From Botryllus schlosseri (Eukaryota): a stretch of 64,000 bases of DNA. The notes beneath the pieces are model-generated. The model was not told the DNA's origin and searched no databases. It worked only from the letters and a program-made list of their open reading frames with translations. Made by a program: the position numbers and the translations under genes. Where the stretch lies: positions 28,646,001 to 28,710,000 of the forward strand of contig CM119372.1 of assembly GCA_051294905.1 (NCBI GenBank). The letters run 5' to 3'. Shown here one piece after another: positions 4,457 through 28,769 of this stretch (position 1 is its first letter; each line of letters begins with the position of its first letter).

Positions 4457-5054
4457 GTCTAGTATGTGACGAGATAGCGTGGTTGTTCAACTGTGTGGCC
4501 TATTTTATCCCGCCCACGGCCTTTACGGAATTTGACAGTGGCCCGCGACCCGTTTTGAGTTGGCAACCCCTGGTATAAGCGGTGTGTTACAAAAGCCAGG
4601 AAGTGTTCCATGAGTAGTTAGAGAAATGTGCGGAAGGTGCCCATTCGCGATTTATAAAGAACAAACAAACATTATCAAGATAATAAACAGTGTAAGAATT
4701 AGCTCATTCTCAGTTTTGCAGCAATACTCGAGGGGAATTCCCTTCTGACTGTGCGGCAATAGGGGGGACTGAGAGAAAACGAACAAAGAATCTGGATTGA
4801 CCTTTGTACTGGAGTCATTCTACTTGTACTTTTCCACTCCTTACCTCGCTTGATCTCTGGACACGAGACTTGTGTATTGAGTATTTATTATATTTTCCCT
4901 CGAATAACAATGGATCGGCTTTTAATTTCAATGGTATGCACGCCGACGATACGCTCGGCTGGGCAAAGCGACGTCCACAGCCTGTGTCATACTGGACTCG
5001 TAACAACCTCGCTCGACCTCTGGTCAAGGACATGAAATTACAGCTGACTCCGGT

Positions 5055-5400
5055 CATACGCGACGGGGCTTGGTAATAGTTGCCTGACGACATATCGTCC
5101 TGACCTATCGTTTTGTGGTCCAATTTCGTGACGTGTCTTGGGAATAATTCCCCGTCAAACCCCCTGGCTGACTTGTCGTCCCGTGGTTGACTCGATTTCA
5201 TGTACGGTGGGGCATGGGAATAATTGCCGGTGCTGACTTCGGTCGTGTACGACGGGGCTTGACCATAGTTGCCGGCCCTGACCTGTCATTCCGTGGTCCA
5301 ATTTCGTGGCTCGGGAACAATAGAGCGTCAAGCTGGTTGACTTGTCGTTCCGCGATTGATTCAATTTCGTGTACGGTGGGTCATAATTACCGGTCGTGAC
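5055..5400 (+). repeat. Subterminal degenerate tandem repeat (~60-65 bp units) of the Polinton-like termini
   Basis: Recurring (A)ATTTCGTG, GGGGCTTGG.AATA.TTGCC and GACTTGTCGT motifs; shorter version in the inner element at ~9425-9600; mirrored at both right ends. Confidence 0.7.
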
Positions 5401-6077
5401 GTCAGTATAGTTTCTTCTGATCCATGAGATCCTGGTGCGTGTTTTAGGTGTCCATACGTTCGGCTATGTAAAGTGACGCTTGTGGTCTGTGTCTTGTGTA
5501 CTGTTGTACTTGAACCCTTTTTTACTTTGTTATCGACCCAGACAGTAACGAGAAACGATCTGTTACGATTATAAATATGTATACCATTTCGAGTCATATC
5601 GAGAATGAGAATGAATGTCGTAGTAGAAATGTGTATTAGGCGACCCGACATAGATTAACTTAAATAAATTAGCATTATAAATACAATAAGTAATTGAGCA
5701 AATAGCTGATTCTCAATTTTGCTCGCATCAACATGTTAACCCCTGGTATTACGTACCTAGTAATCGGCGCAAGCAACAAATGTGGCTGTTCCATACCTAT
5801 ACCTCGTTCTAGCGTATTCATAAGGACAGACAGTCCCGAGTAAAACAATGTATTTATGATGGGTTCTTTTTACTGCTTCACGGTTGGTCAAGCGTAATCA
5901 TCCCGGTGTCTGCAAATGATATTCAATTTACCACGGGATATTAATTTTGTATGCTGTACATGATATACAACTTGAATCGAACTGTTGGCGAACTAATGCT
6001 TTGCCCGTCTGTAACATACACATATCGATCACGAGCTCACCACGCACTTGCAGTTCGAGGGCGACTCATTTCGCTGC

Positions 6078-6730
6078 AGACAATCAGTTGTGTTCGCGTG
6101 TATCGTAACATATCCTCAACACTTGTTATGGCAACACCTCCACGCATATTTACAATATCATACTAAGGAACTATTGCTTCGGCAGCCACGCCCTATCGCT
6201 CGAAGTCGACAAATTTCGCTACAGACAGTCAGTTGTGTTCACGTATGTGTCGTAAATATATCCTCAACACATGCTATGCCAATACCTCCAAGCATATTTG
6301 CATCATACTTAGGGTTCTGGTTTAAATCAGGCTGATTTAAATCATCACGTGTCGACAATCGATCGAAGCCCGTCAACTGGTATTTTGAAAGCTCCCGGTA
6401 TGGTGTATTATTGTGTATGGATTGTTGCGGTATTAGAATTGTGGTTACGGCTCGTTGGCGGTGCGAGGATCAGGTTTATAGTATACTATAACTACTTAGC
6501 TCGGATATTATACGACGCGCTGCTATCGGTGCTTTGTCCAAGACCTAATTCACGATAATCAATCTCGCTGTCGAAAATGACATGCGGCCGCGTAGACTGC
6601 ATAGCGCCATTTTGTTTTGTGATCCATCCTGCTGTGCCGAGGATCGAAACATATCCTCAACACATGTTATGCCAACACCTCCAAGCATATTTGCAGCATC
6701 ATACTACGGATATATTGACTCGGCAGAGTG
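6078..6730 (+). repeat. ~144-bp degenerate tandem repeat within the arms
   Basis: Unit ACAATCAGTTGTGTTCGCGTGT..CGTAACATATCCTCAACAC..GTTATGCCAACACCTCC..GCATATTT at ~6080, ~6224, ~6648 (partial); also ~10237, ~10381, ~12440, ~12565 and all mirror positions. Confidence 0.8.
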
Positions 6731-7950
6731 TTACCGTCAGAGAATTGCTGTGTCACGCCTTCGGGCCTTGTATTTTCCGCTCGGTAACTGCGAGTATGAT
6801 GTTATTTCAATTGTCCGCGAAACGAATCGGGGTAGCTCGCTTCATCGGGGCGGACTGACCTTATCTGGCTGAAACGCGCTCGGTGGTGCAATAATGGGAA
6901 TGAATTGTGACAGATCATACCTGATACGATCTATAGCCTGAGGTGAGGTGTAAAGTAGAGGGGGAGATTTCGAAATCGGAATACACTGCGACTATAGGGT
7001 TGCTAAATCAAAGTCCAAAAAATCCGGCTGGCTCGTAAAGTCCTGTTATTTCCATATGTTGTGAGGGTAAAATATAGCATAAATCCGACTCTCAGGGCCA
7101 TTTGGCCGCATCCAGACTGGCTTCGCTGAAAACTGATGAAATCTGCCCCGGGTCCGGAGATGTTTCGTGACCTCCTCCGTCCAGACAAGATTGTTCTGCT
7201 GTAATATAGGTGTCGTTGTATAATAATTTACGTACAAGGAGACTTGGTATCGACCAGACATGGGGTAATCGTGATTAGTAATCGTAATCGATTACGACGA
7301 TTACAGCATTTCCAAGTAATCGTAATCGCAATCGATTACATTCGACAAAATCCCGAAGTAAGCGTAATCGTAATCGACTACTTCCCATATTTAATCGATT
7401 TCTCTGTGAAAGAACGATTACTTTTTTATTTTTGCAAGTTATATGACATAAAGGTCATAAACTGTACATTCGTGAACAAGGAAGAGATATTATACCAGGC
7501 TCGTGACAGCACAAACGTCTGATTTTCAAACGCCACAGCTCATTATTACGTCAGAAGCAGCCTATTAGCTTTGCGCATCATTGCGTAAGAAGTATCCACG
7601 CTAAATAGATATTCGATGTACATACGTCGCACATTATAGTGTCATTGTATGAACAACTGTCGTGCTATATATCAGGTTATCAACACGTTCCACACGCCAC
7701 CACCTCGCAGCAGGATAATTTATCTCCGCCCTGCCTAGTTTAAAATATAGTAACTTATGGTTGATGTTCGGTTATGCTTATGCTCAGTTAGACGCAATTT
7801 GACGGTAGCTGCTTGGCGAGCAGTAGGCCTATCTAGTACGTACGTCGTACGTACATCAAGATTTGAAATTTTGTACTCGTCAAATAAAACATTGCGATTT
7901 CCACAACGAAGCAGTCAAGATCAACAGCTGGTGATATATATATATATATA

Positions 7951-7982
7951 CAGGGATATCTAGAAACTTCTAGATATCCCTG
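7951..7982. repeat. 32-bp perfect hairpin in a TA microsatellite
   Basis: CAGGGATATCTAGAA-AC-TTCTAGATATCCCTG flanked by TA on both sides. Confidence 0.85.
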
Positions 7983-8324
7983 TACATATATATAAATACC
8001 GCGCCGTTTCTCGTAACGGCAGCTTGAGGTACAATATCTGTATTAAGTTGAAGGCAGAATTGTGTGTTCGCTTCGTCTTATTCTCGTATGACTCTCCTTG
8101 AAACGGGCGCCAATCTTTACTCAACATTGGGACCTGCCGCCATAGTCATGGGCCTAAATATCATGTTAGCATGGGCTGTAGCTGGAATTAGGACTAAAAC
8201 AGCAGTTCGTCCCCCATATGGTGGTAATCGGAGGTTGAAGACTGAATTACGTCAATAATTACATTGTATTACTATTGATTTTTAATCCTCTATCAGCTCC
8301 CGATGGTCAGATTCACCTGTAAGA

Positions 8325-8600
8325 GTTAGTTTGTTTGAGGTAATCTTGGTGTTTGTCCACTACAACGGTCAGTTACACCAGGCCGATTTTCTTCATTTTT
8401 GATTCCGTATCTGCCGACTTGTAGCACGGCCCACTTCTAGGCTTATTGTAAGACACCGCTTACGCGGATGAGTCGGCGAGGAGGAGCCTAGATAAACCTC
8501 CAACACTTAGAAAGGATTTCTGAAGTCGACCTCGGTCGGACTCGAGCCGGCATACAATGGCGTTGCAGCCGTGGATTATACCACTGCGCTATCTCGCCAC
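8325..8600 (-). mobile_element. tRNA-derived SINE, near full length
   Basis: Reverse complement shows GTGGCGAGATAGCGCAGTGG (A box) and GGCTCGAGTCC (B box), shared body and AAAC-type tail. Confidence 0.85.
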
Positions 8601-9128
8601 AGAATTAGGCTATCTACATGTAGAGCTGGGACACGTAATTCATAACCTCTGTTATCTTGTTATAATTACTTTAGTTTATGTTGTTAATTCGTGACCTCCG
8701 ATTTGTTATATAATCAAACGATATTGTAGTGGCTCAAGCGTAGCAGACTAGAAAATAAACTGTCGTGAGACGCACAGACAAATTGTCATGTCTTTATATC
8801 TGACTGCATGTCTAGCAACTCAAGTTGTTAATTAACAGGGTCAGTGGCCACATTAACTACAAAAGGACTTGAAAACATTTTCATCATGGGGAAAAAGCAT
8901 TCATTCCGTCAATGCGGCCGTTGAACTTGACAATCAAGTCAAATGATTCAATGGTTTGATGGTCAGATAGCTTTGTAAAACGTGTTGCAACACCACCTGC
9001 ACTTAATTAAGTCTAATGATGAGCAGACTTAAATTTGAGTGACGATCCAAACGCATTTGAGTGTGAGCATACTTTTTGACGTGAGTTGAGTAACGAAATC
9101 GTTGCTGAGTAGAGAATCGCTACTCGAC

Positions 9129-12100
9129 AGTAGTATATAGTTTGGGCGATCGACGCCCATTCGCGATTTATAATAAACAAACAAAGATTATCAATATAAT
9201 AATTAATTAAAGAATTACCTCATTCTCAGTTTTGCAGCAATACTCAAGGGGAATTCCCTTCTGACTGTGCGGCAATTAAAAAAGGGGGATTGACGCTAGA
9301 GAGAAAACGAACAAAGAATCTCGATTGACCTTTGGAACTTTGGTTAGACATGAGACTTGAGTACTTCTACTTGTACTTTTCCACTCGCCTCCAGATTTAC
9401 CTCGCTTGACCTCTGGACACGAGACCTGGGCTTGGTAATAGTTGCCTCCCGACAAATCGCCCTGGCCTATCGTTTTGTGGTCCAATTTCGTGACGGGGCT
9501 TTGGGAATAATTGCCTATCAAACCACCCTGGTTGACTTGTCGTTTCGCGATTGACTCGATTTCGTGGGGGCATAGGAATAATTGCCGGTCGTGACGTCAA
9601 TAAAGTTTTCTCCTGGTCGGTGAGATCCTGGTGCGTGTTTTAGGTGTCTATACGTTCGGCTGTGCATAGTGACGCATGTAGTCTGTTCCATACTGTCGTA
9701 CTTGCTCTTGCTTTGTTGTCGACTTAAATAGTAAGGAGAATTGATCTGTTCTGGATATAAATATGTGTGTCATTTTGAGTCATATCGAGAACCAGAATGT
9801 CGTGTATTAGAAATAGGTATTAGGCGCCCCCGACATAGATTAACTTGAATAAAGTACCATTTAGAATATAATAAGTAATTAAAGAAATAGCTCATTCTCA
9901 ATTTGACTCGCATCAACGTGTTAATTTCCGATATTGTAGTAATTGGTGCAAGCAAAAACTGCTGTTCCACACCTTTACCGCTTTCTAGCGTATTAGAACA
10001 GACAGTCCCAACCAAACAATGTGATGGGTTCTTTTACTGCTTCACGTCTGGTCAAGCGTAATCATGCCGGTGTCTGTAAATGATGTGTAATTTCCCGCGG
10101 TATATTATTTTTGTATGCTGTACATGATGTACAACTTCAATCGATCAGTTGTCGAACTAATACTTTACCGGTATGTACGATCGATCACGAGCTCACCACG
10201 CACTTGTCGTTCGAGGGCGACTCATTTCGCTATAGGCAATCAGTTGTGTTCGCGTGTACCGTAATATATCCTCAACACTTGTTATGCCAACACCTCCAAG
10301 CATATTTACAATATCATGCTAAGGAACTATTGCTTCGGCAGCCACGCACTGTCGTTCGAATTCGACTAATTTCGCTGTAGACAATCAGTTGTGCTCGTGT
10401 GTGTCGTAACATATCCTCATCAACACATGTTATGCCAACACCGCCGAGCATATTTGCAGCATCATACTACGGATATATTGAACCGGCGAAGTATTACCGT
10501 CAGAGAATTGCTGCGCCACACCTTCGAGCCTCGCTTTCCCGCTCGGTAACTGCGAGTACGATGTCAGATTCAATTGTCCAGTGACGAATCGGGGTAGCTC
10601 GCTTCTTCGGGGTGGACAGACCTTATTTGGCTGAAACGCGCTCGGTGGTGCAATAATGGGAATGAATTGTGACAGATCATACCTGATACGATCTATAGCC
10701 TGATGTGAGGCGTAAAGTAGAGTGGGAGATTTCGAAATCGGAATCCACTGCGACTATAGGATTGCAAAATCAAAGTCCAAAAAATCCGACTGGCCCGTAA
10801 AGTCCTGGTATTTCCATGTATTAGGCTGGTAAAATGTAACATAAATCCAACTCTCAAAGACACTTGGCCGCATCCAGTCCGGGTTTAACCAAAACTGATG
10901 AAATCTGCGCCGGGTCCGGAAACGAATCGTGACCACCCCCGTCCAGACAAAATAGTTCTGCTGTAAGGGGAGTGTCGTTGTACATTAATTTGCGTACAGC
11001 GAGACTTTGTATCGACTCATTGACGGACTTCTGTTTGTATCGCGTTTGGCTTAGAATCCCAATTCTATATAGTGCGGCCCGCGAATGGATTCAAATGTTG
11101 AATGCGGCCCGCGAGCTCAAAACTTTGCCCACCCCTGATGTATATTGTACCACTTGAATCGATCTGTTGGCGAACTAATGCTTTGCCCGTCTGTAACATA
11201 CACATATCGATCACGAGCTCACCACGCACTTGCCGTTCGAGAGCGACTGATTTCGCTATAGACAATCAGTTCAGTGTTGCCAATTTAGCGATTTTCGCGC
11301 TAGATCTAGCGATTTTTGAAAAGGTATTTAGCGATTATTTAGCGCTTTTTACCGAAAATAACTAATAAAGATCGGTTCTGGCCGACGACTATGGCGACTC
11401 ATCTGCCACCAGAGTGCGGACTCCAATGATATGTAATGAAATTAATGATGGATTACTAACGTACGGATAGATACGCAACTCCTGGCGGTTACGCATGGGC
11501 AAACAGTGTCTCTTCTTGCTGTGTAATCTAAAAGTAGCATAATTGACAGTGCTACATCTGGCGACCTGAGCGCTGCAATTTAATATGATTGGCCTTGATC
11601 GAAAGCTAGTGTCGCAGTGATTTCGAAGATACAAAATGAAATCTCGTCAGGACAATGGAACCATGCACCCCGAAACAGCCCTCGGAGTCTGAAAACCAGC
11701 ATTGCTTCAATAATGGCACCGCCGCAACACAATGGACATAACAATGACCAATTTCGTCCAGCGATTGTTCTGATCAATGTCGATTTTCAGACTCTTGGGG
11801 CTACTTTGAAGTCGTTGCATTGTCTTTACAAGAATTTAATTCGTATTGTCGGAATCAGTGTGACACTGGCGTTTAGGACCAGATTCATTAAATTTCTTAC
11901 TCCGGGTTGGTCCTCTACTTTTAGTGGCTGGCAAACCCGGTTCAAGTCGTGTTGTATCGGGTCAAGTCGCATGTTGCGTACAAGTGTGTCAAGTCGCATG
12001 TCGTGTTCAAGTACTCCAACTCAGTTTCGAGAAGTCAAGCGCATTTCCACGGTACATCGCATCACTATTCACGGACGCATGGAGCAAGGCACGCTTATAG

Positions 12101-15100
12101 AGTGAGCGGTTATGCCTGCAAACCTGGTCAGTGGTCACGTATAGCGATCATTGCGCAAAGCGATCCGCTCTACCGAAACGCACTGCACGTTTTGTTCCGC
12201 TTAGAGATGAATATTACGTATTATGAACTAGAAATATGATAAGTGACTTTGGCCCCCAGGCGAGTAAAATACAGCTGAGAAGAGTGTATTGATATTATGG
12301 TTCAATTTAACACGTTTAGCAATTAATGTAGATCTAGCGCTATTTTGTAGCGCTTTTTTCTCAATATTTAGCAACATCTAGCGATTTTTGACACCAGTTT
12401 TAGCGATTTTCTTCCATCCGGAGTTGGCAACACTGAATCAGTTGTGTTCGCGTGTACCGTAACGTATCCTCAACACTTGTTATGCCAACACCAATATCAT
12501 ACTAAGGATATATTGCTTCGGCAGCCACGCACTGTCGTTCGAATTCGACTAATTTCGCTGCTGACAATCAGTTGTGCTCACGCGTGCCGTAAAATATCCT
12601 CAACAAATGTTATGTCATATTTGCAGCATCATACTATGGACGTATTGACTCGGCGGAGTGTTACCGTGAGAGAAATGCTGTTTGAGCCCCTCGTCCTAGC
12701 CTTGGATTTACCGTTTCGAAAAATTCCACCAGAAGAAGCTGTGATCGAGTGTCACAATCAATGTCAGCCACGCTCCATCAACCTGTTGTTTTGACAAAAC
12801 CAGTACGTATACGCCGGAGATGAGCATTGATTAGGATTTAGAAAAAACGTATTTGTGAAATTTTTCTGGATTAGGTTGAATTGAGTTTTGAGATTGATTT
12901 ACCATATCGTACGGGCAACTACTACCGAGACCCGTCGTGACGAAATCGGATTAATCAGTCATGGAACGACAAGTTAGGGCTAACCGCTGATATTCCTAGT
13001 TTATTCTTGAAAGCTCTATAGATTACTGGTTAGCTGTATGTTGTGGGCGATTGACAACAGTTAGTTGTCGCTGTTATACAATTTACACTTTGTGTTATAC
13101 ATTCCTTGTTACCACCGCGAACTAGGAGGTCAATCACGACGACGGGCAACTACTCCCAATTGGCGGAATACTGTTTGATTCATCTGTATAATCAGGTTTA
13201 GCACCACAAGAAGAATATAAGTAGTTTATGATTGAATGAAATCTATCAATCAAACAACGATAATAACTATATAGATCTCGTTCGTATTACTATGAGAGCT
13301 AATCGATCACGTCCACACAATATTATTACGTAGCATTCATTTGGTGGGGATGTTGTTGTTAGTATTGTAACATGGTGATCGGCTACTATGACCTTTACAC
13401 CAGTTCTAAAAGGGTAAGGAATTGGTTAGTGTTACAGCTGTCTGACGGTGGGGTATTCGACAAAATTGATATGTTTTACTACGGAAGCTATGATCACACG
13501 GACGGGCTCTCATCACTTATCGTACGAATGCTTGTAATCTCGATGTAGTGTGATGCACACGAATCAGCTGTGATCAGTCGAGTGTGACACGATCGAAGTC
13601 ACTATTTACTGTTTGAAATAACTCGTATATTCCGTTCAAGAAATGTCCCTCATTTGTCCAAATATCCTCCTTTTTGTCAAATTGTCTTCCTTTTTTCATC
13701 TTAAAATATCTAAAAAGACTACGAATGGCACTAAATGATGACCTAGTTTACGAGAGATGGGTATTTCGGGAGTCAAGTCAGGGGACAAAATGAGCTTTTT
13801 TAGTCAACACCATGAAATTTGATGTATAAACATACAAATCATTCGTCCGCTATAGTAACTTTTTGCAGCTCGTGGAAAGTGTCCTCCTTTCGGGGCTTAT
13901 GGTAACCCTATATTTTACCAGCTTTTAGTCTCGGACTTGAACATCGAAGTTTGCACATAATTTCACATTACATTCCCTATGACAAGCATAGGCTATTACG
14001 GTTATGGGACCTGTGCTCTCAAACATGTATTGATGAATAGCGAAAGCGACCACAAGCTTTCATTACATGAAAAAAAACGAGCTCACTAGCCCGTCCATGT
14101 TGGCATGTACACACCAATGGCCATGTCCATGATCTGAAGTTTGCACATAATTTCACATTGCATTCCCATGACTTAGCACAGACTATTACGTGGGTATGGA
14201 GGCTGTGCTTTTCAAACATGTATCGAGGAATACCGAAAGCGACTCAAGCTACCATTACACGAAAAATCGAGCACACTCGTTCCTCCCTCTCGGGGTATAC
14301 CCACCTTCGTTTCGTACAGACAAATGTTTCCATGTTGCAGCGACAATAGCGGGGAGGGTGGTAGATCATTATCACAATCAGTACCTTGGGATGAGTGTGA
14401 AATCGACATCGTCCGTTAAGCGACTGAAGCTAGTCGCCACTACAATCACTCTCTGCGTAGTGCGTAAACGCGACGTACAAAGCGCTGCTGGGTATACGAA
14501 ACTACGGATTCTAGCCAAAGCGAGGTTATCGAGATAGCTGTAGCGATTCACAGCACATGCTAAATCTCCTTGAAATGGGAGTACAAAATGTATCGCTTTG
14601 AAATACTCAAGTAGAAGTAGTTGTTAAAGAGTAATTCGCACCGTAAAATTGCAACTGTTTTGGAGTGCTAATGTCACACAATTGCTATATTGATCACTCG
14701 CTTATGTGTAGAAAGCAGAAATTGACCCCTGGGTTGTACGATCTCGTGGCCTTGACAAACGTTCTATAGTTCAAAAGTCACTGTCATGTTGGGCTTTGAT
14801 TGCTGTTGTACTCTTGTTAGCGTCGATATTCATTGGTACGTGTTTTCATGGTCTAAAATGTTGGTTATTATAGAGTGTTTTCGTAAAAGGTTGGGAGCCA
14901 CTGATTTAGGCCTTGATGGGTTCAACCAAATACACGTGTAACACATCCTATTCCTGGGCCGTAACCGATCCTTTACCACACCTTCTATACGATAAACGTC
15001 CTTTTTATCCAGAGGTAAGCCGACGACATACGGGAAATGCAGGCGCTGACGTGCTATTTTGTTATTCTCTCCGCGTAACATGAAAGAAGGTATTGAGGTA

Positions 15101-15344
15101 CCCTCCCAAGGTCACTGCGAGCGTAAGTTAAGTCAATCTCTGTGTATGTAGTGTTAATGTCGCACCGTCGCAATAATGATCACTTATGTGTAGAAAGCAG
15201 AAATTTACGACTCGATTACTTGTACGAGCTTGTAGCTTTGGTAAGCTTGCTGAAGCGGAAAGCCACTCAAGTTGGACATTAAATTGATTGGTGTTCGTTC
15301 TCTTGTTAATAGTCGTTGGTACGTGCTTTCGTGCTTTAAAATTT
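9129..15344 (+). repeat. Inner element left inverted arm (~6.2 kb)
   Basis: Near-perfect reverse complement of 17020-23241; only two substitutions (near 14472 and 14584) and a 6-bp indel near 15308 noticed by eye. Confidence 0.95.
11272..12435. mobile_element. Non-autonomous hAT-type element inside inner left arm
   Basis: TIR CAGTGTTGCCAA / TTGGCAACACTG, 8-bp TSD AATCAGTT (11264-11271, 12436-12443), subterminal TTTAGCGA repeats. Confidence 0.9.
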
Positions 15345-17019
15345 TCAACGAATTTTAAAGATAAATAAAGAAACAGCTGATTCACACTTTTGCAAGCAAT
15401 ACTTCCGGGTATCCCGCTGTGCGGTAATGAAAAGAGGAGATTTAGGTCATAGCGAAATAGAATAAACTTCAAAAAATGGGGTTGATAAATTTTGTAAAGT
15501 ACCATAAGACATACTCAACATCAACTAATGAATTAGATATGATGTCTTGATGTCATGTGACTATAAAATCGGTTACACATTGTAACACATCGGTATCAGA
15601 CAATAACTTACACAAGCTTAAATGTGTGTTAATTTGCTTTGTAATGTGAGTTAGTGGGCATGGGGATGATTATTTCATCAATTGAATCGATTGCGATTAC
15701 GATTACTGCTGAATCATCCGACTATAATTACGGTTACAGAAAAATCCCACAAGTAGTCGAAACGTAATCACCAAGGTGCTAATTTGTTATCTCTCCTCCG
15801 TCATATGTCACCGGGTATAGGCATTGATACAATGCAGTATTGAATGCGATCCTAATAAGAATTGATACTATGCAGTGTTGACCGTGATACGTGAGGACCC
15901 CTGCTGTATGCTAATATGTCTTTTTACAAAAGTTATCACTCGTAACCCCCCACAGTGTGCGAGTTATCAACAAATCGCAGACACACTACTTCGCATAGGG
16001 GAGAATAATAACCCTCCACTCTGCTTAGTTTCAAATGGCAAAGCAATTATTGACGTTTCTTGTGTGTTAAACACATTTGGAACGCTGCTCCTTGGCCAGT
16101 AGTACGAACAGCGGACATCTATTTGAAGTTTTACACTCATCAAATAATAGATGACAAATTTCCACATCAAAGCAATAAAATCATCGGGTACCAAAATAAA
16201 TCATAACCGAGCCTGGTGGTAACGACAGCTCGCGGACTTGTATGAATTATCCAACTAATTGGTTGACGGTCAGCCATCTGCGGTTTTATGTAGTTATAGT
16301 TGCGGAGTTAAAAAAGTCAGTTGCTCGAGTTCTAGTTGCGCATTCTAGAACTGATTTCGCTGTGAAACTCGAACTGTAGAATAAAACATGTGTCGCGGTT
16401 TGACGTAAATCATGATACCGATGTTCTGTTATGTGATGTGCTTGCGGCCGTTGTTAGCTCACAGTCAGCGATACTAACAGTGGCTTAGGAAGGGTTTCAA
16501 CCACTTCAAATTCAAAGACCTATCCTTTCAAAATACCGATTCTATGTCTAATACTTCTTAGCTCATTTCCAAATCATCATTAATTCGTATTATCGGAAAT
16601 CATAGTCAGTTGTACAGCCTAGTTTATATTGCTACTTCATTTATGTACCCTCTTCATTACTACACACTAGGTGGCGGAAACGAGTAAAAATATTTATTTA
16701 AACGTATAGCACGCAGTGGGGGTACTTGTCGATCGCGTTGAACACTGTATTGTCGGGTACCACAGCCCAATGTCTACCTACCCTGTCATGTGACGTCGAA
16801 ATAATAACGAAATGGCACGTTAGTACTGCGTCTTCACAGATCATCGTGCTACGTATGAGTAAAAGCTACGTTTACGATATAGAAGGTGTGGTAAAAGATC
16901 GGTTTCGGCCCGGGGTAGGATGTGTTACACTGTTACACGCGTATTTTGTTGAACACATCAAGGTCTAAATAAGTTGTTCCTGCCTATTTATGACCATCCT
17001 TCGATGATAACAATAACAT

Positions 17020-20000
17020 AAATTTTAAAGCACGAAAGCACGTACCAACGACTATCAACGCTAACAAGAGAACGAACACCAATCAATTTAATGTCCAACT
17101 TGAGTGGCTTTCCGCTTCAGCAAGCTTACCAAAGCTACAAGCTCGTACAAGTAATCGAGTCGTAAATTTCTGCTTTCTACACATAAGTGATCATTATTGC
17201 GACGGTGCGACATTAACACTACATACACAGAGATTGACTTAACTTACGCTCGCAGTGACCTTGGGAGGGTACCTCAATACCTTCTTTCATGTTACGCGGA
17301 GAGAATAACAAAATAGCACGTCAGCGCCTGCATTTCCCGTATGTCGTCGGCTTACCTCTGGATAAAAAGGACGTTTATCGTATAGAAGGTGTGGTAAAGG
17401 ATCGGTTACGGCCCAGGAATAGGATGTGTTACACGTGTATTTGGTTGAACCCATCAAGGCCTAAATCAGTGGCTCCCAACCTTTTACGAAAACACTCTAT
17501 AATAACCAACATTTTAGACCATGAAAACACGTACCAATGAATATCGACGCTAACAAGAGTACAACAGCAATCAAAGCCCAACATGACAGTGACTTTTGAA
17601 CTATAGAACGTTTGTCAAGGCCACGAGATCGTACAACCCAGGGGTCAATTTCTGCTTTCTACACATAAGCGAGTGATCAATATAGCAATTGTGTGACATT
17701 AGCACTCCAAAACAGTTGCAATTTTACGGTGCGAATTACTCTTTAACAACTACTTCTACTTGAGTATTTCAAAGCGATACATTTTTTACTCCCATTTCAA
17801 GGAGATTTAGCATGTGCTGTGAATCGCTACAGCTATCTCGATAACCTCGCTTTGGCTAGAATCCGTAGTTTCGTATACCCAGCAGCGCTTTGTACGTTGC
17901 GTTTACGCACTACGCAGAGAGTGATTGTAGTGGCGACTAGCTTCAGTCGCTTAACGGACGATGTCGATTTCACACTCATCCCAAGGTACTGATTGTGATA
18001 ATGATCTACCACCCTCCCCGCTATTGTCGCTGCAACATGGAAACATTTGTCTGTACGAAACGAAGGTGGGTATACCCCGAGAGGGAGGAACGAGTGTGCT
18101 CGATTTTTCGTGTAATGGTAGCTTGAGTCGCTTTCGGTATTCCTCGATACATGTTTGAAAAGCACAGCCTCCATACCCACGTAATAGTCTGTGCTAAGTC
18201 ATGGGAATGCAATGTGAAATTATGTGCAAACTTCAGATCATGGACATGGCCATTGGTGTGTACATGCCAACATGGACGGGCTAGTGAGCTCGTTTTTTTT
18301 CATGTAATGAAAGCTTGTGGTCGCTTTCGCTATTCATCAATACATGTTTGAGAGCACAGGTCCCATAACCGTAATAGCCTATGCTTGTCATAGGGAATGT
18401 AATGTGAAATTATGTGCAAACTTCGATGTTCAAGTCCGAGACTAAAAGCTGGTAAAATATAGGGTTACCATAAGCCCCGAAAGGAGGACACTTTCCACGA
18501 GCTGCAAAAAGTTACTATAGCGGACGAATGATTTGTATGTTTATACATCAAATTTCATGGTGTTGACTAAAAAAGCTCATTTTGTCCCCTGACTTGACTC
18601 CCGAAATACCCATCTCTCGTAAACTAGGTCATCATTTAGTGCCATTCGTAGTCTTTTTAGATATTTTAAGATGAAAAAAGGAAGACAATTTGACAAAAAG
18701 GAGGATATTTGGACAAATGAGGGACATTTCTTGAACGGAATATACGAGTTATTTCAAACAGTAAATAGTGACTTCGATCGTGTCACACTCGACTGATCAC
18801 AGCTGATTCGTGTGCATCACACTACATCGAGATTACAAGCATTCGTACGATAAGTGATGAGAGCCCGTCCGTGTGATCATAGCTTCCGTAGTAAAACATA
18901 TCAATTTTGTCGAATACCCCACCGTCAGACAGCTGTAACACTAACCAATTCCTTACCCTTTTAGAACTGGTGTAAAGGTCATAGTAGCCGATCACCATGT
19001 TACAATACTAACAACAACATCCCCACCAAATGAATGCTACGTAATAATATTGTGTGGACGTGATCGATTAGCTCTCATAGTAATACGAACGAGATCTATA
19101 TAGTTATTATCGTTGTTTGATTGATAGATTTCATTCAATCATAAACTACTTATATTCTTCTTGTGGTGCTAAACCTGATTATACAGATGAATCAAACAGT
19201 ATTCCGCCAATTGGGAGTAGTTGCCCGTCGTCGTGATTGACCTCCTAGTTCGCGGTGGTAACAAGGAATGTATAACACAAAGTGTAAATTGTATAACAGC
19301 GACAACTAACTGTTGTCAATCGCCCACAACATACAGCTAACCAGTAATCTATAGAGCTTTCAAGAATAAACTAGGAATATCAGCGGTTAGCCCTAACTTG
19401 TCGTTCCATGACTGATTAATCCGATTTCGTCACGACGGGTCTCGGTAGTAGTTGCCCGTACGATATGGTAAATCAATCTCAAAACTCAATTCAACCTAAT
19501 CCAGAAAAATTTCACAAATACGTTTTTTCTAAATCCTAATCAATGCTCATCTCCGGCGTATACGTACTGGTTTTGTCAAAACAACAGGTTGATGGAGCGT
19601 GGCTGACATTGATTGTGACACTCGATCACAGCTTCTTCTGGTGGAATTTTTCGAAACGGTAAATCCAAGGCTAGGACGAGGGGCTCAAACAGCATTTCTC
19701 TCACGGTAACACTCCGCCGAGTCAATACGTCCATAGTATGATGCTGCAAATATGACATAACATTTGTTGAGGATATTTTACGGCACGCGTGAGCACAACT
19801 GATTGTCAGCAGCGAAATTAGTCGAATTCGAACGACAGTGCGTGGCTGCCGAAGCAATATATCCTTAGTATGATATTGGTGTTGGCATAACAAGTGTTGA
19901 GGATACGTTACGGTACACGCGAACACAACTGATTCAGTGTTGCCAACTCCGGATGGAAGAAAATCGCTAAAACTGGTGTCAAAAATCGCTAGATGTTGCT

Positions 20001-23000
20001 AAATATTGAGAAAAAAGCGCTACAAAATAGCGCTAGATCTACATTAATTGCTAAACGTGTTAAATTGAACCATAATATCAATACACTCTTCTCAGCTGTA
20101 TTTTACTCGCCTGGGGGCCAAAGTCACTTATCATATTTCTAGTTCATAATACGTAATATTCATCTCTAAGCGGAACAAAACGTGCAGTGCGTTTCGGTAG
20201 AGCGGATCGCTTTGCGCAATGATCGCTATACGTGACCACTGACCAGGTTTGCAGGCATAACCGCTCACTCTATAAGCGTGCCTTGCTCCATGCGTCCGTG
20301 AATAGTGATGCGATGTACCGTGGAAATGCGCTTGACTTCTCGAAACTGAGTTGGAGTACTTGAACACGACATGCGACTTGACACACTTGTACGCAACATG
20401 CGACTTGACCCGATACAACACGACTTGAACCGGGTTTGCCAGCCACTAAAAGTAGAGGACCAACCCGGAGTAAGAAATTTAATGAATCTGGTCCTAAACG
20501 CCAGTGTCACACTGATTCCGACAATACGAATTAAATTCTTGTAAAGACAATGCAACGACTTCAAAGTAGCCCCAAGAGTCTGAAAATCGACATTGATCAG
20601 AACAATCGCTGGACGAAATTGGTCATTGTTATGTCCATTGTGTTGCGGCGGTGCCATTATTGAAGCAATGCTGGTTTTCAGACTCCGAGGGCTGTTTCGG
20701 GGTGCATGGTTCCATTGTCCTGACGAGATTTCATTTTGTATCTTCGAAATCACTGCGACACTAGCTTTCGATCAAGGCCAATCATATTAAATTGCAGCGC
20801 TCAGGTCGCCAGATGTAGCACTGTCAATTATGCTACTTTTAGATTACACAGCAAGAAGAGACACTGTTTGCCCATGCGTAACCGCCAGGAGTTGCGTATC
20901 TATCCGTACGTTAGTAATCCATCATTAATTTCATTACATATCATTGGAGTCCGCACTCTGGTGGCAGATGAGTCGCCATAGTCGTCGGCCAGAACCGATC
21001 TTTATTAGTTATTTTCGGTAAAAAGCGCTAAATAATCGCTAAATACCTTTTCAAAAATCGCTAGATCTAGCGCGAAAATCGCTAAATTGGCAACACTGAA
21101 CTGATTGTCTATAGCGAAATCAGTCGCTCTCGAACGGCAAGTGCGTGGTGAGCTCGTGATCGATATGTGTATGTTACAGACGGGCAAAGCATTAGTTCGC
21201 CAACAGATCGATTCAAGTGGTACAATATACATCAGGGGTGGGCAAAGTTTTGAGCTCGCGGGCCGCATTCAACATTTGAATCCATTCGCGGGCCGCACTA
21301 TATAGAATTGGGATTCTAAGCCAAACGCGATACAAACAGAAGTCCGTCAATGAGTCGATACAAAGTCTCGCTGTACGCAAATTAATGTACAACGACACTC
21401 CCCTTACAGCAGAACTATTTTGTCTGGACGGGGGTGGTCACGATTCGTTTCCGGACCCGGCGCAGATTTCATCAGTTTTGGTTAAACCCGGACTGGATGC
21501 GGCCAAGTGTCTTTGAGAGTTGGATTTATGTTACATTTTACCAGCCTAATACATGGAAATACCAGGACTTTACGGGCCAGTCGGATTTTTTGGACTTTGA
21601 TTTTGCAATCCTATAGTCGCAGTGGATTCCGATTTCGAAATCTCCCACTCTACTTTACGCCTCACATCAGGCTATAGATCGTATCAGGTATGATCTGTCA
21701 CAATTCATTCCCATTATTGCACCACCGAGCGCGTTTCAGCCAAATAAGGTCTGTCCACCCCGAAGAAGCGAGCTACCCCGATTCGTCACTGGACAATTGA
21801 ATCTGACATCGTACTCGCAGTTACCGAGCGGGAAAGCGAGGCTCGAAGGTGTGGCGCAGCAATTCTCTGACGGTAATACTTCGCCGGTTCAATATATCCG
21901 TAGTATGATGCTGCAAATATGCTCGGCGGTGTTGGCATAACATGTGTTGATGAGGATATGTTACGACACACACGAGCACAACTGATTGTCTACAGCGAAA
22001 TTAGTCGAATTCGAACGACAGTGCGTGGCTGCCGAAGCAATAGTTCCTTAGCATGATATTGTAAATATGCTTGGAGGTGTTGGCATAACAAGTGTTGAGG
22101 ATATATTACGGTACACGCGAACACAACTGATTGCCTATAGCGAAATGAGTCGCCCTCGAACGACAAGTGCGTGGTGAGCTCGTGATCGATCGTACATACC
22201 GGTAAAGTATTAGTTCGACAACTGATCGATTGAAGTTGTACATCATGTACAGCATACAAAAATAATATACCGCGGGAAATTACACATCATTTACAGACAC
22301 CGGCATGATTACGCTTGACCAGACGTGAAGCAGTAAAAGAACCCATCACATTGTTTGGTTGGGACTGTCTGTTCTAATACGCTAGAAAGCGGTAAAGGTG
22401 TGGAACAGCAGTTTTTGCTTGCACCAATTACTACAATATCGGAAATTAACACGTTGATGCGAGTCAAATTGAGAATGAGCTATTTCTTTAATTACTTATT
22501 ATATTCTAAATGGTACTTTATTCAAGTTAATCTATGTCGGGGGCGCCTAATACCTATTTCTAATACACGACATTCTGGTTCTCGATATGACTCAAAATGA
22601 CACACATATTTATATCCAGAACAGATCAATTCTCCTTACTATTTAAGTCGACAACAAAGCAAGAGCAAGTACGACAGTATGGAACAGACTACATGCGTCA
22701 CTATGCACAGCCGAACGTATAGACACCTAAAACACGCACCAGGATCTCACCGACCAGGAGAAAACTTTATTGACGTCACGACCGGCAATTATTCCTATGC
22801 CCCCACGAAATCGAGTCAATCGCGAAACGACAAGTCAACCAGGGTGGTTTGATAGGCAATTATTCCCAAAGCCCCGTCACGAAATTGGACCACAAAACGA
22901 TAGGCCAGGGCGATTTGTCGGGAGGCAACTATTACCAAGCCCAGGTCTCGTGTCCAGAGGTCAAGCGAGGTAAATCTGGAGGCGAGTGGAAAAGTACAAG

Positions 23001-23241
23001 TAGAAGTACTCAAGTCTCATGTCTAACCAAAGTTCCAAAGGTCAATCGAGATTCTTTGTTCGTTTTCTCTCTAGCGTCAATCCCCCTTTTTTAATTGCCG
23101 CACAGTCAGAAGGGAATTCCCCTTGAGTATTGCTGCAAAACTGAGAATGAGGTAATTCTTTAATTAATTATTATATTGATAATCTTTGTTTGTTTATTAT
23201 AAATCGCGAATGGGCGTCGATCGCCCAAACTATATACTACT
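17020..23241 (-). repeat. Inner element right inverted arm (~6.2 kb)
   Basis: Mirror of 9129-15344 (e.g. 14830..15081- vs 17289..17540+ give identical translations). Confidence 0.95.
19935..21098. mobile_element. Mirror copy of the 11272-12435 hAT-type element in inner right arm
   Basis: Same element at the same site with TSD AACTGATT; ORF translations identical to the left copy. Confidence 0.9.
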
Positions 23242-23934
23242 CTCGACAGCAAAGGAATTGGTCTCCACCCTTAATTATTAACTCCAGATTCCAAGCCAAG
23301 CAAGTGTAATTTTTGAAAATCAATTTTTTTTGTTTGTTCTAAATTGATTTTATAATGTTTTTGTTGGGTTTTCCAACGTCAATGGGAGCCGCAAGTAGGC
23401 TAGCTCGTAGCTGCTTGTGGCTCTCAGAGCCGCGGTTGGGAATCACTGATCTAGAGAGGATTTTCAAACTAATTAGATCTCTCAAAAATACTCTATAACT
23501 TATGTTGGTTTACGAAATACTTTTTGAGCCCCCTTCGAGCTCGCTCCCCACCATATTGGGAAATTTGGGGTGCGGTAATTAGGCCCCTGGCAAGAATGCA
23601 AATCATTGAGTGCGATAAATTGACCCCTAAAAAATAGGCAATGGGTACATTATGACGTAACAAGCAAATGACGCATCTCTTTTACAGGGAGTTTGTTATC
23701 TCATTAGGCCTCTTCAGCGCAATCCATATATTGTCTTCCAACATAGCTTCGAAGATGCAAAATAAATGTAATCGTGAGTAATCGTGATTACTTTTCCAAT
23801 GTAATCGTAATCGTAATCGACTACTTCCTGATGTTGCTGTAATCGTAATCGTAATCGTAATCGCGTCATTCATAAGTAATCGTAATCGCAATCGATTACA
23901 ATCATAAACTAATCACCCCATGTCTGGTATCGAC

Positions 23935-26900
23935 CCTTTGGCGGAATTCTGTTTGGTTCGTCTGTACAGGTGTTATTAGTGCGACCAGATTTGGCACCTC
24001 GAGGAGGATATTGGTAAAAACCGTATCACACAACGAGGACAATAACTTTACCGGTCAACAATGTACGTAAATCAGCTGTGTTCAATCGAGCGTGACACAA
24101 TCGATGTCAGCCATCAATCTGCGGCTTGATAAAACCCGCGTTTTCGGGTTGACAGCAACACAATGCGATCCATTCGATATCACTATCGACCCTCCTATTT
24201 TAATATAGGGTTACCATGAGGCCTCCTTTAGGGGAGCATATGTCCTCCATTTCCCAGATATGTCACCCAATTCACCCAAATGTACTCTCTTTCTGTCAGT
24301 TTGTCCTCCTTGTTAGCTCAACATCTCCAAAAAAGCACCACGAGTAACGCAAAATGTGGGCCTAGATTACAAAAGTCGGGTACGTGGCCAAATCGGAAAA
24401 ATGACGCTATGATGGTATTGTGCAGGCTATTACGTGGATACGGGGGCCTGTGTAAACATGTGAATAGTAAAAGCGCTCCAAACTACCGTGAAAAAAGATC
24501 GAGCGCATTAGACCATGTCGGGGCCACCTTAGTACAGTCAAATGATCCCATGTCGTATCGAGAATAGCCGGGGCGGTGGTGGTACATCATTCTCACAAGA
24601 TGTACTTTGGAATGCGTGTGAAATCGTCTTCGTCCGCTACTCGACTAAAGCAGAATATAGCTTTGAAGTACTCAAGTAGCTTTAAAGGAAATGTCGTGAA
24701 ATCGCTTTCTATCCTAATGATAAAGAGTAGGCCCCCCATAAATCTATCGAGCCAAAATGTAGTTTCAAAGCAATCCAGTAATTTGTAAATCTTACGGGTT
24801 GAACGGTGTGTTCATTGACTAGAGAGAAGGAGACACGACGGTGCCTGTATAACAAGGCTGTTCTCAAACCGACATTGTCTTCGTTATTATCGGCGAGATA
24901 TGGCTTTGCAGTGACATTGCGGTCGGTAAAATACATTGATTAAATACGATTTATCCCTCGTATATGGGGATCAATGGGCGAATAATGTATCGATTCAGCA
25001 ATTCGGCATGCCAAGTACTTAATTTTCTCCGGCCCGCCGACCGAAGGAGTTGCCCGCCCCCCTTGTATAACACATATGTAGATGATACAATAGCGACAGC
25101 TAGCGGTTGTCAATCATCCATAAAAATACTAACCAGTAATACAGCCCTCAAGGAAAACAACAATCCGGGGAGATACGTCAAGTGTATTTCAGATACATCG
25201 TCTGTAGACCTCCAATTGCGGAGAACACTGGAGCAGCTGAAGCACTGTGTTCTGTCTAGGTCACCGAGATAAAGCTTGTTTTGCCAACTCGCCGACCGTC
25301 CGTGGTATGGGATAGCTGGGTCATTTCTCAAAGGTTCAGTACTCTCCGTATTTTGAGGTTATTGCACAATCTATCTCTAATATGCTGTAATATAGACAGG
25401 TCCAGACTTGTCTATTCACTTCCGTAGACTGACCTTTATAACACATTTTACACAATTAAATACACATGTTCAGTTTATTTGAAGTAATAACGGGCAAGCA
25501 CATTAACTAATCGTCCAGAACAAGGTGTAGAGCTTCTTTCAGATCTTGGCATACTTTCTTGATATCAGAATCTTTTTTTTGATTTGCGATGTAAAAGCAA
25601 TACCAGCTTCGCATACATGAGCATATGATTGCGTATAAACCGATATTGAAGTCTTCTGAGAGCATCTTCATTATTCTCCAGTCTACACAATATTATTTTC
25701 CTCTTAGTACGTTATGTCTCTCAATCCAACAGAACAGTTGAATTGCTATTCGAAGGTATCTGATACAGACAACTGTAAACTAATTCTTTAAGTTTGTTCA
25801 TCGTAGCGTAACGACCATTTTTACGAATCCATAACTGTATCATTTGATATCGTTGCTCAGTTAAGGTATAGCAATCCATGTATTGGCATTCGGCAATTTC
25901 ATTGTCAGATAGCTCAAGTTTTTCACGTGCAAACCTATACCAGTTCATCGGGTCAATCCGATCCATTATGACGTATATATCACTAGCAGTAATCTTGGAC
26001 ATATTCGATCTATAGTGTACAGCGAATAATCATGTAATAAATATTACACGTTATATATTGCCTTGCACTCGGTTCAACTACAATAACAAATAAGGCGATC
26101 AACTTACGCAATAATGACGTAATCATATCTCAGCGTTACTGAAACCAAGCAAAGCCGCTCTCGTAATAACTAGAGTAATCAACTATACGCAATCATAATG
26201 ACGTAATCATTACTGCACATGCTTGAACTGCAATACGCAATCATAATGAAGAATATATACGTATATATCAATTTCTGCAACTTTTTAATTTTGCTCGCAC
26301 TGTACACGATTTCATGTAGATAAATGTTTTGATTATTAGGCACCCTTCCTTCACAAAAAATACGCATCATTTATGAGAGTAGGAATCTAAGCGTTGGCCA
26401 TTACCACGCCAAGAGGTAAGAAGACATATGAAGTTTGGGCCATCATGGGCCTCATAGAAGAGTGCCAAAAAGATCGTCAGCGAGAAAACATGGGTCGAAA
26501 AGGATTGCCCTTATGTTGACCGTAAACTTCGATATAAATGTATTTGTATGGGTGTCTAAAGTGCTGGCACCGAATAATTATGTCGTGGTAATCTGGACCC
26601 CACAGGGCAACTGACATCCCACCCCGAATTATTATTTAACAGTGAAGAAATACCAATTTTGAATCGTGCGCTTCTTTTAGTTTAGTAGTCTGTGTATAGG
26701 CGAGTTCAATATCTTTTGATTACATACCGCACATGGGAAGTCGGACTGAGAGGATACAAAATTTATAGCAATATACACGCAATTATCAATATTATTGACC
26801 TAATCAATCATTAATTATACAGTCATTTCACCAGGTCCACGTGGTCGCATCTGAATGGAGACCGGATAGGTCAAAAGTGCTACATTCGGTCAAAGTGGCG

Positions 26901-27592
26901 AACATACCGCCTGGTTATCAAGTGTTTTTATGTATGATCGACCCCCACTGTCTAGCGAGACGAGCAGGATTTTGGTGTCTGATTATTAATGTCGTAAGAG
27001 TGTGGTAAATCCATTTACAAACTACTTTACACATTTCAAAATCCCAACACCCGAAAAGTAAGTAGCTAAAACGGTTGAAGCGGAGGTAGTCTGAAACACA
27101 ACGACTCATATAGCACAGATGGACAAATCCTAATCGAGTACATCGGATAGAGTTGCATCCTTGAAATCGTTATTTCCTCAACAAATCGATACAAGAATGG
27201 ATCTGCATGGGAATAAACATGAATATGTTCTGATGACACTCGTTATGGAAAGCTAAATTCGCCTGCCCCACATCCCCAACAGAACATATTGACAATTAAT
27301 ATCAGCCATATACTACAGAAATACCCATTTACTCGAATGGTACCATGTCTGAAATACTGTAGTGTAGGCGAATCAGCGTCTACTGATCCTGACAGTCACC
27401 GTTTAAACAGGTTTTTGCCGGGTCAACTGTGATCGGACACGGTTCATCCGCTACTTGCAGACTTATACGCGCGGGGGGTTGAAAAAAAAATGGCTCGGAT
27501 GCTATGTCAGCTCAGGGCGACAATTCGAAGTTTTAAACGATACGGTTGGTACGTAAAGCCTCGTTATTCCCGCGTATTGTGAGGGTAAAACC
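23935..27592 (+). repeat. Outer element left inverted arm, part 2
   Basis: Reverse complement of 29718-33374 (ORF 24964..25272+ mirrors 32038..32346-; 26918..27109- mirrors 30201..30392+). Match ends at GAGGGTAAAACC / GGTTTTACCCTC. Confidence 0.95.
25721..26002 (-). CDS. Death-domain-only protein (93 aa)
   Basis: ATG-initiated ORF with the death-domain pattern W..FAR..L.LSDNEI...L.EQ.YQM...W..KNG..AT...L...; TATA box ~50 bp upstream. Confidence 0.8.
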   Translation of the reverse strand: MSKITASDIYVIMDRIDPMNWYRFAREKLELSDNEIAECQYMDCYTLTEQRYQMIQLWIRKNGRYATMNKLKELVYSCLYQIPSNSNSTVLLD

Positions 27593-28234
27593 GATGCTAA
27601 AATAAGTCGTCGGAAGGGTATACCGAAAGCCTCTTTGCACTGCGGGTGAACTTATCGCATAGCATTTCACAGCTCTGCGGCGTAATTTAACTGTCTAGCG
27701 CTGTGGACGGTCCATTTTGTCTGCTAATTGGGGGCCATAAACGACCGAGTGAAACAAATAGTTTGGGGTATATGCGGATATGATTAGGAAACAACACGCT
27801 GAATGACTTGGGAATCTCAACTCGACAAAGGATCGTCGCGACGGGGGACCTGCAAAAACGTCCCAGACACCCTGAATCCCGCTAATGTAGGCGCTGACAG
27901 AGCATAATTTTCCCTGCTACGGGTGTAATCTAGATAAAGCATGATTTTTTCCTATATGTCTGTAATCTATATAAAGCATAGTGCTCCCTAGATACCAGGC
28001 GTGGGGGATCACGAATCACCAAGTGTTTTTATACATTGAGAAATGATCGAGCTATTTTTATACCCGAGGTAGTCATTCAGAGACATGCAGGCTTATTCGT
28101 ATAGACTCTCTATAGTGTAGCATCTATCTGATTCGGGGATAAGTAAATGCTTTGTCCACGCTCAAACTGAGGATGCTTTGAATTTGTATCTTACTCATGT
28201 TATTATTCACCCTCCAGGAAATATTTATAGTACG

Positions 28235-28741
28235 ATGGAGTCTAATAAATGCCGTATTTGTGCGCGGGAATTCACAAGAAAATGCAACCTCAAAAGTCAT
28301 TTACTATGGCACACTGGTGTTAAAGAACATGAATGCTTGATATGCGGACGATGGTTTCTTGCCAAACAGAACCTACATGCCCATTTGGCTGTACACTCGG
28401 GGGTGAAACCGTACGATTGTGAAGTATGTGGTCGTTTTTTTGCCCGAAAATACACCATGGAAGTTCATTTGGCCACACATACTGGCGTAGAAAGATTCGA
28501 GTGTGGGGTGTGTGGTAAGCTTCTGTCGGGGAAGAATGGGCTGAAAAAACACCTAGAAACACACTTTGGAATTGGAAAATACTCGTGTCAGGTGTGTGGG
28601 AGACTGTTTCCTCACCAATGCGGGTTAGAAACTCACCTCCAGGCTCCCGTGGGACTGAGAAAATATCCATGCGGTGTTTGCGGTAAAGCTTTTGGTTCGC
28701 AAGCAAATCTTCACAGACACGAGACTACTCCCTTTGTGTGA
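28235..28741 (+). CDS. Tandem C2H2 (Kruppel-type) zinc-finger protein, 168 aa from first ATG
   Basis: Six CxxC units with TGVKEHE/SGVKPYD/TGVERFE linkers; fingers 1-4 have both His, fingers 5-6 lack the last His. A pyrimidine-rich CCCTCCAG at ~28210-28217 suggests an upstream intron, so the true start could lie in another exon. Confidence 0.9.
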   Translation: MESNKCRICAREFTRKCNLKSHLLWHTGVKEHECLICGRWFLAKQNLHAHLAVHSGVKPYDCEVCGRFFARKYTMEVHLATHTGVERFECGVCGKLLSGKNGLKKHLETHFGIGKYSCQVCGRLFPHQCGLETHLQAPVGLRKYPCGVCGKAFGSQANLHRHETTPFV

Positions 28742-28769
28742 GCCGATCGTATTTCAATATGAGTGTACC

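Follow-up and report, generated by a model that had tools for sequence, protein, structure and literature searches.

Two nested palindromic elements with Polinton ends in Botryllus schlosseri and a possible packaging constraint on their length

Two inverted-repeat elements with Polinton ends and without Polinton core genes lie nested in a 64,000-nt stretch of the Botryllus schlosseri genome (GCA_051294905.1, contig CM119372.1, positions 28,646,001-28,710,000, forward strand), here called the window. We propose that a helper Polinton copied and integrated them, and that their length was held near that of the helper genome because they spread via its capsid, a reading to which we assign a probability of about 45%. 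The elements are real; a packaging constraint on their length is plausible but unproven.

Structure and lengths of the two elements

By coordinates, the inner element sits inside a hAT-type insertion in one arm of the outer element (Table 1), and both elements have near-identical arms of 6.2-6.3 kb. The insertion, which we take to belong to the hAT superfamily from its ends and the length of its target site duplication (TSD), is 2,553 bp long without the inner element. With the inner element and the 8-bp TSD it amounts to 16,680 bp, and its removal shortens the outer element from 31,404 to 14,724 bp. The first-pass annotation had given the lengths as 14,113 bp (inner) and 14,724 bp (outer, after removing 16,680 bp), and this arithmetic is exact by coordinates and TSDs. 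As a net length, the outer value needs qualification, since the outer spacer holds a 1,609-bp cassette that is probably a nested insertion and, if so, is subtracted to leave 13,115 bp. The outer net length may thus lie anywhere between 13.1 and 14.7 kb, depending on the status of the cassette. A TSD was sought around the cassette and none was found; an apparent 8-bp TSD was rejected because it is itself palindromic and lies within the 33-bp inverted repeat. The zinc-finger ORF within the cassette has 292 generic matches, and among the 120 matches listed identity was 27-45% and none carried a signal of origin.

Between the inner arms there are two substitutions and a single 6-bp indel, none of them more than 873 bp away from the spacer. 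Arm divergence is 0.048% in the inner and 0.238% in the outer element, which indicates that the inner element inserted more recently. Two copies with TSDs of their own show that the sequence moved as a unit and more than once, as expected of a non-autonomous Polinton derivative.

Arms and spacers were also found in contigs of three of the four sequencing runs examined; in the fourth, the raw-read run X21, only 4 of 30 bins were covered. Runs with small word shares were left out of this comparison. In these three runs contig depth, which is not equivalent to copy number, dropped stepwise from terminus to spacer (terminal to inner-spacer ratio 17-31), and therefore the family exceeds two copies and is internally varied. 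Depth in the bin at 218-697 bp from the terminus was 0.70-0.79 of that in the two bins that follow, so no excess of short end-only derivatives is seen at that scale. The contigs used for depth are short, and none spans a whole element; the 15 joints listed out of 167 yielded no size spectrum.

Table 1. Features of the nested elements, in window coordinates
Feature	Position	Strand	Details
Outer palindromic element	4613..36016		Polinton-type ends AGTAGT...ACTACT; TSD TCCATG; 31,404 bp, 14,724 bp without hAT insertion
Outer left arm, distal part	4613..7254	+	11 substitutions vs right arm in 2,643 columns
hAT-type non-autonomous element	7255..23926		16,672 bp; CAG...CTG ends; 8-bp TSD GTATCGAC; single arm only
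Inner palindromic element	9129..23241		Polinton-type ends AGTAGT...ACTACT; TSD CTCGAC; 14,113 bp
Inner left arm	9129..15344	+	6,216 bp
hAT-type MITE, inner left arm	11272..12435		1,164 bp; 8-bp TSD
Inner spacer	15345..17019		1,675 bp
Spacer segment homologous to outer spacer	15881..16014	+	pairs with 29300-29427 (-)
Inner right arm	17020..23241	-	6,222 bp
hAT-type MITE, inner right arm	19935..21098		identical mirror copy
Outer left arm, proximal part	23927..27592	+	3 substitutions, 1 gap vs right arm in 3,668 columns
Death-domain ORF, outer left arm	25721..26002	-	93 aa, open; PF00531, E 5.8e-11
Outer spacer	27593..29717		2,125 bp
Cassette in outer spacer	27610..29218		1,609 bp between 33-bp inverted repeats (one mismatch)
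C2H2 zinc-finger ORF	28235..28741	+	168 aa, open, intronless; TATA-like site 27970, AATAAA 28770
Spacer segment common with inner element	29300..29427	-	pairs with 15881-16014 (+)
Outer right arm	29718..36016	-	6,299 bp
Death-domain ORF, right-arm copy	31308..31589	+	in-frame stop at codon 21
Frame with partial BIR (IAP) domain	31952..32197	+	PF00653, E 3.8e-6, profile positions 30-63 only; left-arm mirror exists
Dispersed repeat	32250..32518		~270 bp; mirrored at 24792-25060; 83% like 3247-3520 outside element

Gene content and comparison with known systems

No Pfam match to a polymerase, integrase, capsid, ATPase or protease was obtained among 104 fragments of the inner and 99 of the outer element; the outer scan took in one ORF of the terminal 2.66 kb and otherwise the remainder of the element, and short decayed pieces could escape it. 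The longest stop-to-stop frame across both elements is 206 aa, and Rfam gave no match in the region 4500-36100. The inner element has no recognisable gene among its scanned fragments. Its 121-aa frame (14172-14534) was taken as non-coding or decayed, as none of seven candidates passed and Atlas matches reached at most 0.80. The outer element departs from the earlier description as gene-less: it carries an open 93-aa death-domain ORF, whose sole database match is one unnamed record at 99% identity, an open 168-aa zinc-finger ORF and a BIR remnant. Part of its length may therefore be functional. Terminal-motif scans of viral and metagenome contigs returned no loci, and these collections yielded neither a helper sequence nor a capsid gene or packaging signal.

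The open-access literature that we searched held no description of near-fully palindromic non-autonomous Polintons or of a size constraint on them. The first-pass annotation compared the elements with copy-back defective viral genomes. Copy-back and snap-back genomes do carry one end as an inverted copy and depend on a helper, and to this extent the analogy holds. They are usually far shorter than the helper and are not known to be integrated or to have a stuffer role, unlike the integrated elements of ~13-15 kb described here. A better fit is the undersized helper-dependent adenovirus genome that regains helper length by doubling into an inverted dimer.

According to a review (PMC4189039), adenovirus genomes outside a size window of 75-105% rearrange, and a 15-kb helper-dependent vector was packaged as direct and inverted dimers. 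As in such gutless vectors, the ends are kept here; in the vectors, genes are supplied in trans and inverted dimers or stuffer reach the 75-105% window. Those vectors are engineered and non-integrating and their packaging was measured (PMC4189039), whereas the present elements are natural, integrated and only putatively packaged.

Autonomous relatives bracket the observed size. Vertebrate Mavericks, as described in PMC8097293, are 12,723-24,620 bp long with terminal inverted repeats (TIRs) of 46-1,447 bp and an AGT-repeat end motif; intact ones average 16,862 ± 1,678 bp, which its authors read as a constrained, capsid-linked size, and at the time of that paper Maverick particles had yet to be seen. 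The elements share the AGT-repeat ends, the 6-bp TSD and a length inside that range (PMC8097293). They differ from autonomous Polintons/Mavericks in having no polymerase, integrase, ATPase, protease or capsid ORF, and in TIRs of 6.2-6.3 kb as against ~50-1,500 bp. Butterfly polintons lacking polB (bioRxiv 10.1101/2025.02.07.637071) are likewise non-autonomous and amplified after uptake of a host transposon, and polintons with ~2-kb TIRs resemble the elements in that enlarged TIRs duplicate genes. Unlike the elements here, both kinds retain most core genes and neither forms a near-complete palindrome (bioRxiv 10.1101/2025.02.07.637071).

Turnover of content and explanations for the shared length

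The two elements reach similar lengths with largely different content. Only 2,738 of 7,891 bp of inner arm plus spacer and 2,475 of 8,424 bp of the outer equivalent align by blastn, so that about two-thirds of each has no counterpart. The earlier claim that the spacers and much of the inner parts of the arms differ is borne out by this figure except that the spacers share ~130 bp of homologous sequence, with a score of 70 against 35 ± 4 (maximum 46) in 100 shuffles. The elements also have a common terminus of 1.9-2.7 kb at 78-87% identity, with collinear islands out to 5.4/3.4 kb. The distal homologous block measures 10,820 bp in the inner and 6,772 bp in the outer element (+4,048 in the inner), and the central block 3,293 and 7,952 bp (-4,659). 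Distal gain and central loss thus nearly cancel in the inner element (net -611 bp), and block differences of 4-4.7 kb far exceed the net length difference of 0.6-1.0 kb.

Each inner arm gained 2.0 kb, of which about 1.7 kb consists of a mirrored host MITE (1,172 bp) and duplicates of the element's own subterminal sequence (539 bp); we conclude that this part is non-coding filler, copied to both arms and kept. A putative 842-bp TIR element at 12749-13590 was rejected as a local duplication because its two ends match one outer-arm site. Mirrored inserts were found twice, both of them small (1,172 and ~270 bp), and the large insert (16,680 bp) occurs in a single arm only. The inner arm/spacer border falls inside a ~490-bp repeat, which indicates that arm borders move.

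We suggest that an inverted duplication arose from one end-region of ~6-7 kb. The displaced strand could then fold into a long panhandle in which a gain or loss in one arm would be copied to the other or removed, so that total length would move in steps of twice the indel. Packaging and re-integration would be limited to full duplexes of ~75-105% of helper length, and for this reason the doubling itself would be the main stuffer. Mirrored host transposons and local duplications would be retained when they offset lost cargo, and single-arm insertions such as that of 16.7 kb would arrive after integration and so fall outside the size limit. The earlier proposal that arm expansion acts as stuffer to reach encapsidation length gains from the offsetting gains and losses, the mirrored junk and the adenovirus precedent; it is weakened by the sample of two and by the open cargo genes that make up part of the outer arm. 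Integration within the same nucleus requires no capsid, a point against the capsid reading.

The length match is not significantly above chance for two related copies. For two log-uniform lengths, the probability that they agree this closely is 0.05 (range 5.3-30 kb), 0.09 (8-20 kb) or 0.20 (12-18 kb), rising to 0.08-0.33 if the outer element is taken as 13.1 kb, and the probability that two such blocks leave so small a net change is 0.08-0.13; all of these are post hoc values for n=2, and the two copies are relatives rather than independent draws. With chance values spanning 0.05-0.33, and with the common terminus, collinear islands and shared spacer segment, an inherited length is the strongest competitor, albeit an unlikely one. 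Both elements would descend from a palindromic ancestor of ~13-14 kb, indels would have cancelled by chance, and long complete palindromes would have caught the reader's attention. The unmatched two-thirds of each element and the large block differences behind a small net change speak against it. Non-autonomous derivatives of other DNA transposons, moreover, mostly become shorter, and these two did not.

It is rather improbable that length was bounded with no capsid involved, from below by cis-elements and cargo (anti-apoptotic or immune-decoy genes and a spacer element) and from above by host selection against long palindromes or limits of the helper polymerase or integrase. The death-domain and zinc-finger ORFs, the BIR remnant and the conserved terminal block and spacer segment agree with such bounds. 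Against them, the younger inner element carries no recognisable gene in the 104 fragments scanned, and since the common sequence makes up less than half of this element, all of it would fit into a 7-8-kb form. Least probable is a template switch at the mid-molecule meeting point of forks from the two ends, restoring parent length regardless of content: it would match the distal gain, the central loss and the moving arm borders, but repeated mid-point switching should erase the homologous segment kept in both spacers, and a switch in the middle of the helper should leave core-gene remnants, none of which was found in the arm fragments scanned.

Implications for Polinton spread

If packaging did hold these lengths, the elements may be natural gutless Polintons, that is, gene-poor inverted dimers kept at capsid size by selection, whose lengths would form a genomic record of virion spread and whose host-like death-domain, IAP and zinc-finger cargo would be carried between cells or animals. 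We hold this wider reading somewhat more tentatively than the packaging constraint. Virion formation by animal Polintons/Mavericks has long been an open question. A narrow size in intact elements can mirror gene content, and in gene-poor satellites it cannot. Should hundreds of such palindromes hold helper length despite turnover of content, they would provide an unusually clean and purely computational test of encapsidation and, if the reading is true, a natural counterpart to the size rule of adenovirus vectors.

Architecture and lengths of the two palindromic elements

Self-comparison of the window revealed two giant inverted repeats, each a palindromic element with Polinton-type ends, and both elements are real (see table). 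The inner element has a 1,675-bp spacer between arms of 6,216 and 6,222 bp, which differ by 2 substitutions and one 6-bp indel. The left arm of the outer element is split by a 16,672-bp insertion that contains the inner element and that we take, from its ends and TSD length, to be of the hAT type; its empty site is visible in the outer right arm. Nesting is three levels deep (Polinton-type, hAT-type, Polinton-type), all three TSDs are perfect, and arm divergence (0.24% in the outer element, then 0.05% in the inner) is consistent with this order. Subtracting 16,680 bp leaves a net outer length of 14,724 bp, and the first-pass annotation had the inner, insertion, and net outer lengths exactly right.

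All three inner-arm differences lie at most 873 bp from the spacer (P = 0.003 if uniform, post hoc), and 11 of the 15 outer-arm differences fall in the distal 2.6 kb (p = 0.017, also post hoc). This unevenness may reflect arm repair from the ends inward, or later conversion.

Features of the two elements and of the surrounding window
Feature	Coordinates	Length	Description
Inner element	9129-23241	14,113 bp	AGTAGT start, ACTACT end; CTCGAC flanking both sides
Outer element	4613-36016	31,404 bp	End motif as in inner (AGTAGT...ACTACT); TSD TCCATG
hAT-type insertion	7255-23926	16,672 bp	CAG...CTG ends; 8-bp TSD
Common spacer segment	15881-16014 (inner) and 29300-29427 (outer)		No obvious common ORF
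Inner-arm differences	14472-15344 vs 17020-17900
hAT-type repeat remnant	15659-15737		Small, in inner spacer; 80% like end of the hAT-type insertion
Island conserved between arms	14179-14623 and 32499-32886		~70% conserved; broken frame on either strand
Zinc-finger cassette	27610-29218	1,609 bp	33-bp inverted repeats at borders
Second small ORF	31618-31803 (+)		Directly 3' of death-domain gene, then AATAAA; no Pfam hit
P-element transposase frame	60484-62883 (+)	799 aa	Open; PF21787, PF21788, PF12017, PF21789

Content of arms and spacers

The contents of the elements differ, as had been proposed: in a blastn comparison, aligned sequence makes up 2,738 of the 7,891 bp in the inner arm and spacer, and 2,475 of the 8,424 bp in the outer arm and spacer. 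Counted from the terminus, inner 1-1909 aligns with outer 1-2663 at 78-87%, and further collinear islands join inner 4434-4473 to outer 2778-2817, ~4500-4650 to 2964-3090, and 5051-5410 to 3131-3386. Distal to the last anchor, both arms together hold 10,820 bp in the inner element versus 6,772 in the outer (+4,048); central to it the figures are 3,293 and 7,952 bp (-4,659), a net difference of -611 bp. The likeness in length therefore does not stem from likeness in content.

The distal gain of the inner element is largely identifiable. It comprises a hAT-type MITE of 1,164 bp, which has an 8-bp TSD of its own, is identical between the arms, and sits in a stretch of duplicated subterminal sequence of ~540 bp, and other local duplications with periods of ~190 and ~490 bp. 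The computed length without the mirrored MITE is 11,769 bp. Since a host transposon lands once and the MITE is mirrored, we infer that the arms were copied from each other, either prior to the spread of the element or in the course of it. In the outer element, a dispersed repeat of roughly 270 bp is present in both arms.

The claim that the spacers differ holds for most of their length but not for ~130 bp of homologous sequence (score 70 versus 35 ± 4 in 100 shuffles, maximum 46), a candidate cis-element for packaging, resolution, or promoter function. The island conserved between the arms is possibly a decayed accessory gene.

No Polinton core gene was found in either element, the longest frame being 206 aa. 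In the inner element, none of 104 fragments passed the Pfam cut-off; these were all 94 of at least 32 aa in 11040-17019, plus 10 picked out of the terminal 1.9 kb. The description "gene-less" fails for the outer, in which three cargo domains, and only these, passed among 99 fragments from 27593-33360. Its spacer has an open zinc-finger ORF of 168 aa, both of its arms hold a partial BIR domain, and its left arm has an open death-domain ORF of 93 aa, whose right-arm copy is stopped at codon 21. The zinc-finger gene, compact and intronless, sits within a cassette around which no TSD was found and whose contig depth is 0.32-0.54 of the adjoining spacer in three runs. The cassette may be mobile and unclassified, or may be cargo of a subfamily; if it arrived after integration, the outer length was 13,115 bp. 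Elsewhere in the window, the frame with P-element transposase domains is perhaps part of a young P-type element.

Relatives and occurrence in public sequence data

Both elements behave like non-autonomous Polintons in their ends and TSDs. They differ from autonomous Polintons in lacking core genes and in having TIRs four times as long as the largest published. The nearest relatives in the literature are polB-less butterfly polintons that carry TEs (bioRxiv 10.1101/2025.02.07.637071). The portions consulted of 10.1101/2024.01.15.575659, PMC10748475, PMC6431247, PMC8502044, and PMC7279171 contain no palindromic non-autonomous Polinton, and none was found in searches of the open-access literature.

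The inner element is partly present in 20 of the 24 public runs listed, 7 of which hold at least half its words; the terminal motifs had no match in the viral or metagenome contigs searched. When region 15345-29717 was compared with four runs in 30 bins, three contig sets covered 30/30 bins and one raw-read run 4/30. Depth drops stepwise from terminus to spacers, with terminal/inner spacer ratios of 31, 17, and 20 and terminal/outer spacer remainder ratios of 22, 10, and 5 in the three contig sets, where summed depth is not a copy number and no contig spans an element. The outer-type arm keeps terminal depth to ~3.6 kb (0.86-1.40). The bin that spans 218-697 bp from the terminus has 0.70-0.79 of the depth of the next two, the final 217 bp being confounded with the hAT element. 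The profile fits many subfamilies with common ends and unlike interiors, and gives no sign, across these bins, of many short end-only derivatives.

Length match and a possible capsid packaging constraint

Under log-uniform nulls, the probability of the length match is 0.048 (5.3-30 kb), 0.090 (8-20 kb), 0.198 (12-18 kb), and 0.018 (0.2-20 kb), or 0.083, 0.154, 0.329, and 0.032 with a 13.1-kb outer element, and a two-block model gives 0.08-0.13; the ranges are our choices, and the two copies are related rather than independent. A match beyond chance is not established from these two. That inheritance plus chance produced the likeness is a secondary, rather unlikely reading. Lengths set by the needs of cargo and cis-elements, together with limits from the host, seem improbable, and mid-point template switching more improbable still.

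We consider it plausible (probability about 0.45) that element length is held by a capsid packaging constraint, as first suggested, and close experimental precedent exists. Polinton end motifs are thought to act in protein-primed replication, and intact vertebrate Mavericks measure 16,862 ± 1,678 bp, a size that the authors of PMC8097293 tie to capsid stability. Adenovirus genomes below 75% or above 105% of wild type undergo rearrangement, and a 15-kb helper-dependent vector was encapsidated in dimeric form, both direct and inverted (PMC4189039). Undersized HSV-1 vectors gain length on passage (PMC12111873).

A 6-7 kb end-region doubled in inverted form would be a natural version of the adenovirus vector inverted dimer. 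Panhandle repair would mirror every indel between the arms, so that element length would shift by twice the indel size, and a capsid window would admit only variants with roughly offsetting gains and losses. If length is matched to that of the helper, a presumed autonomous Polinton, the packaged form is predicted to be the full duplex rather than a folded 7-kb hairpin.
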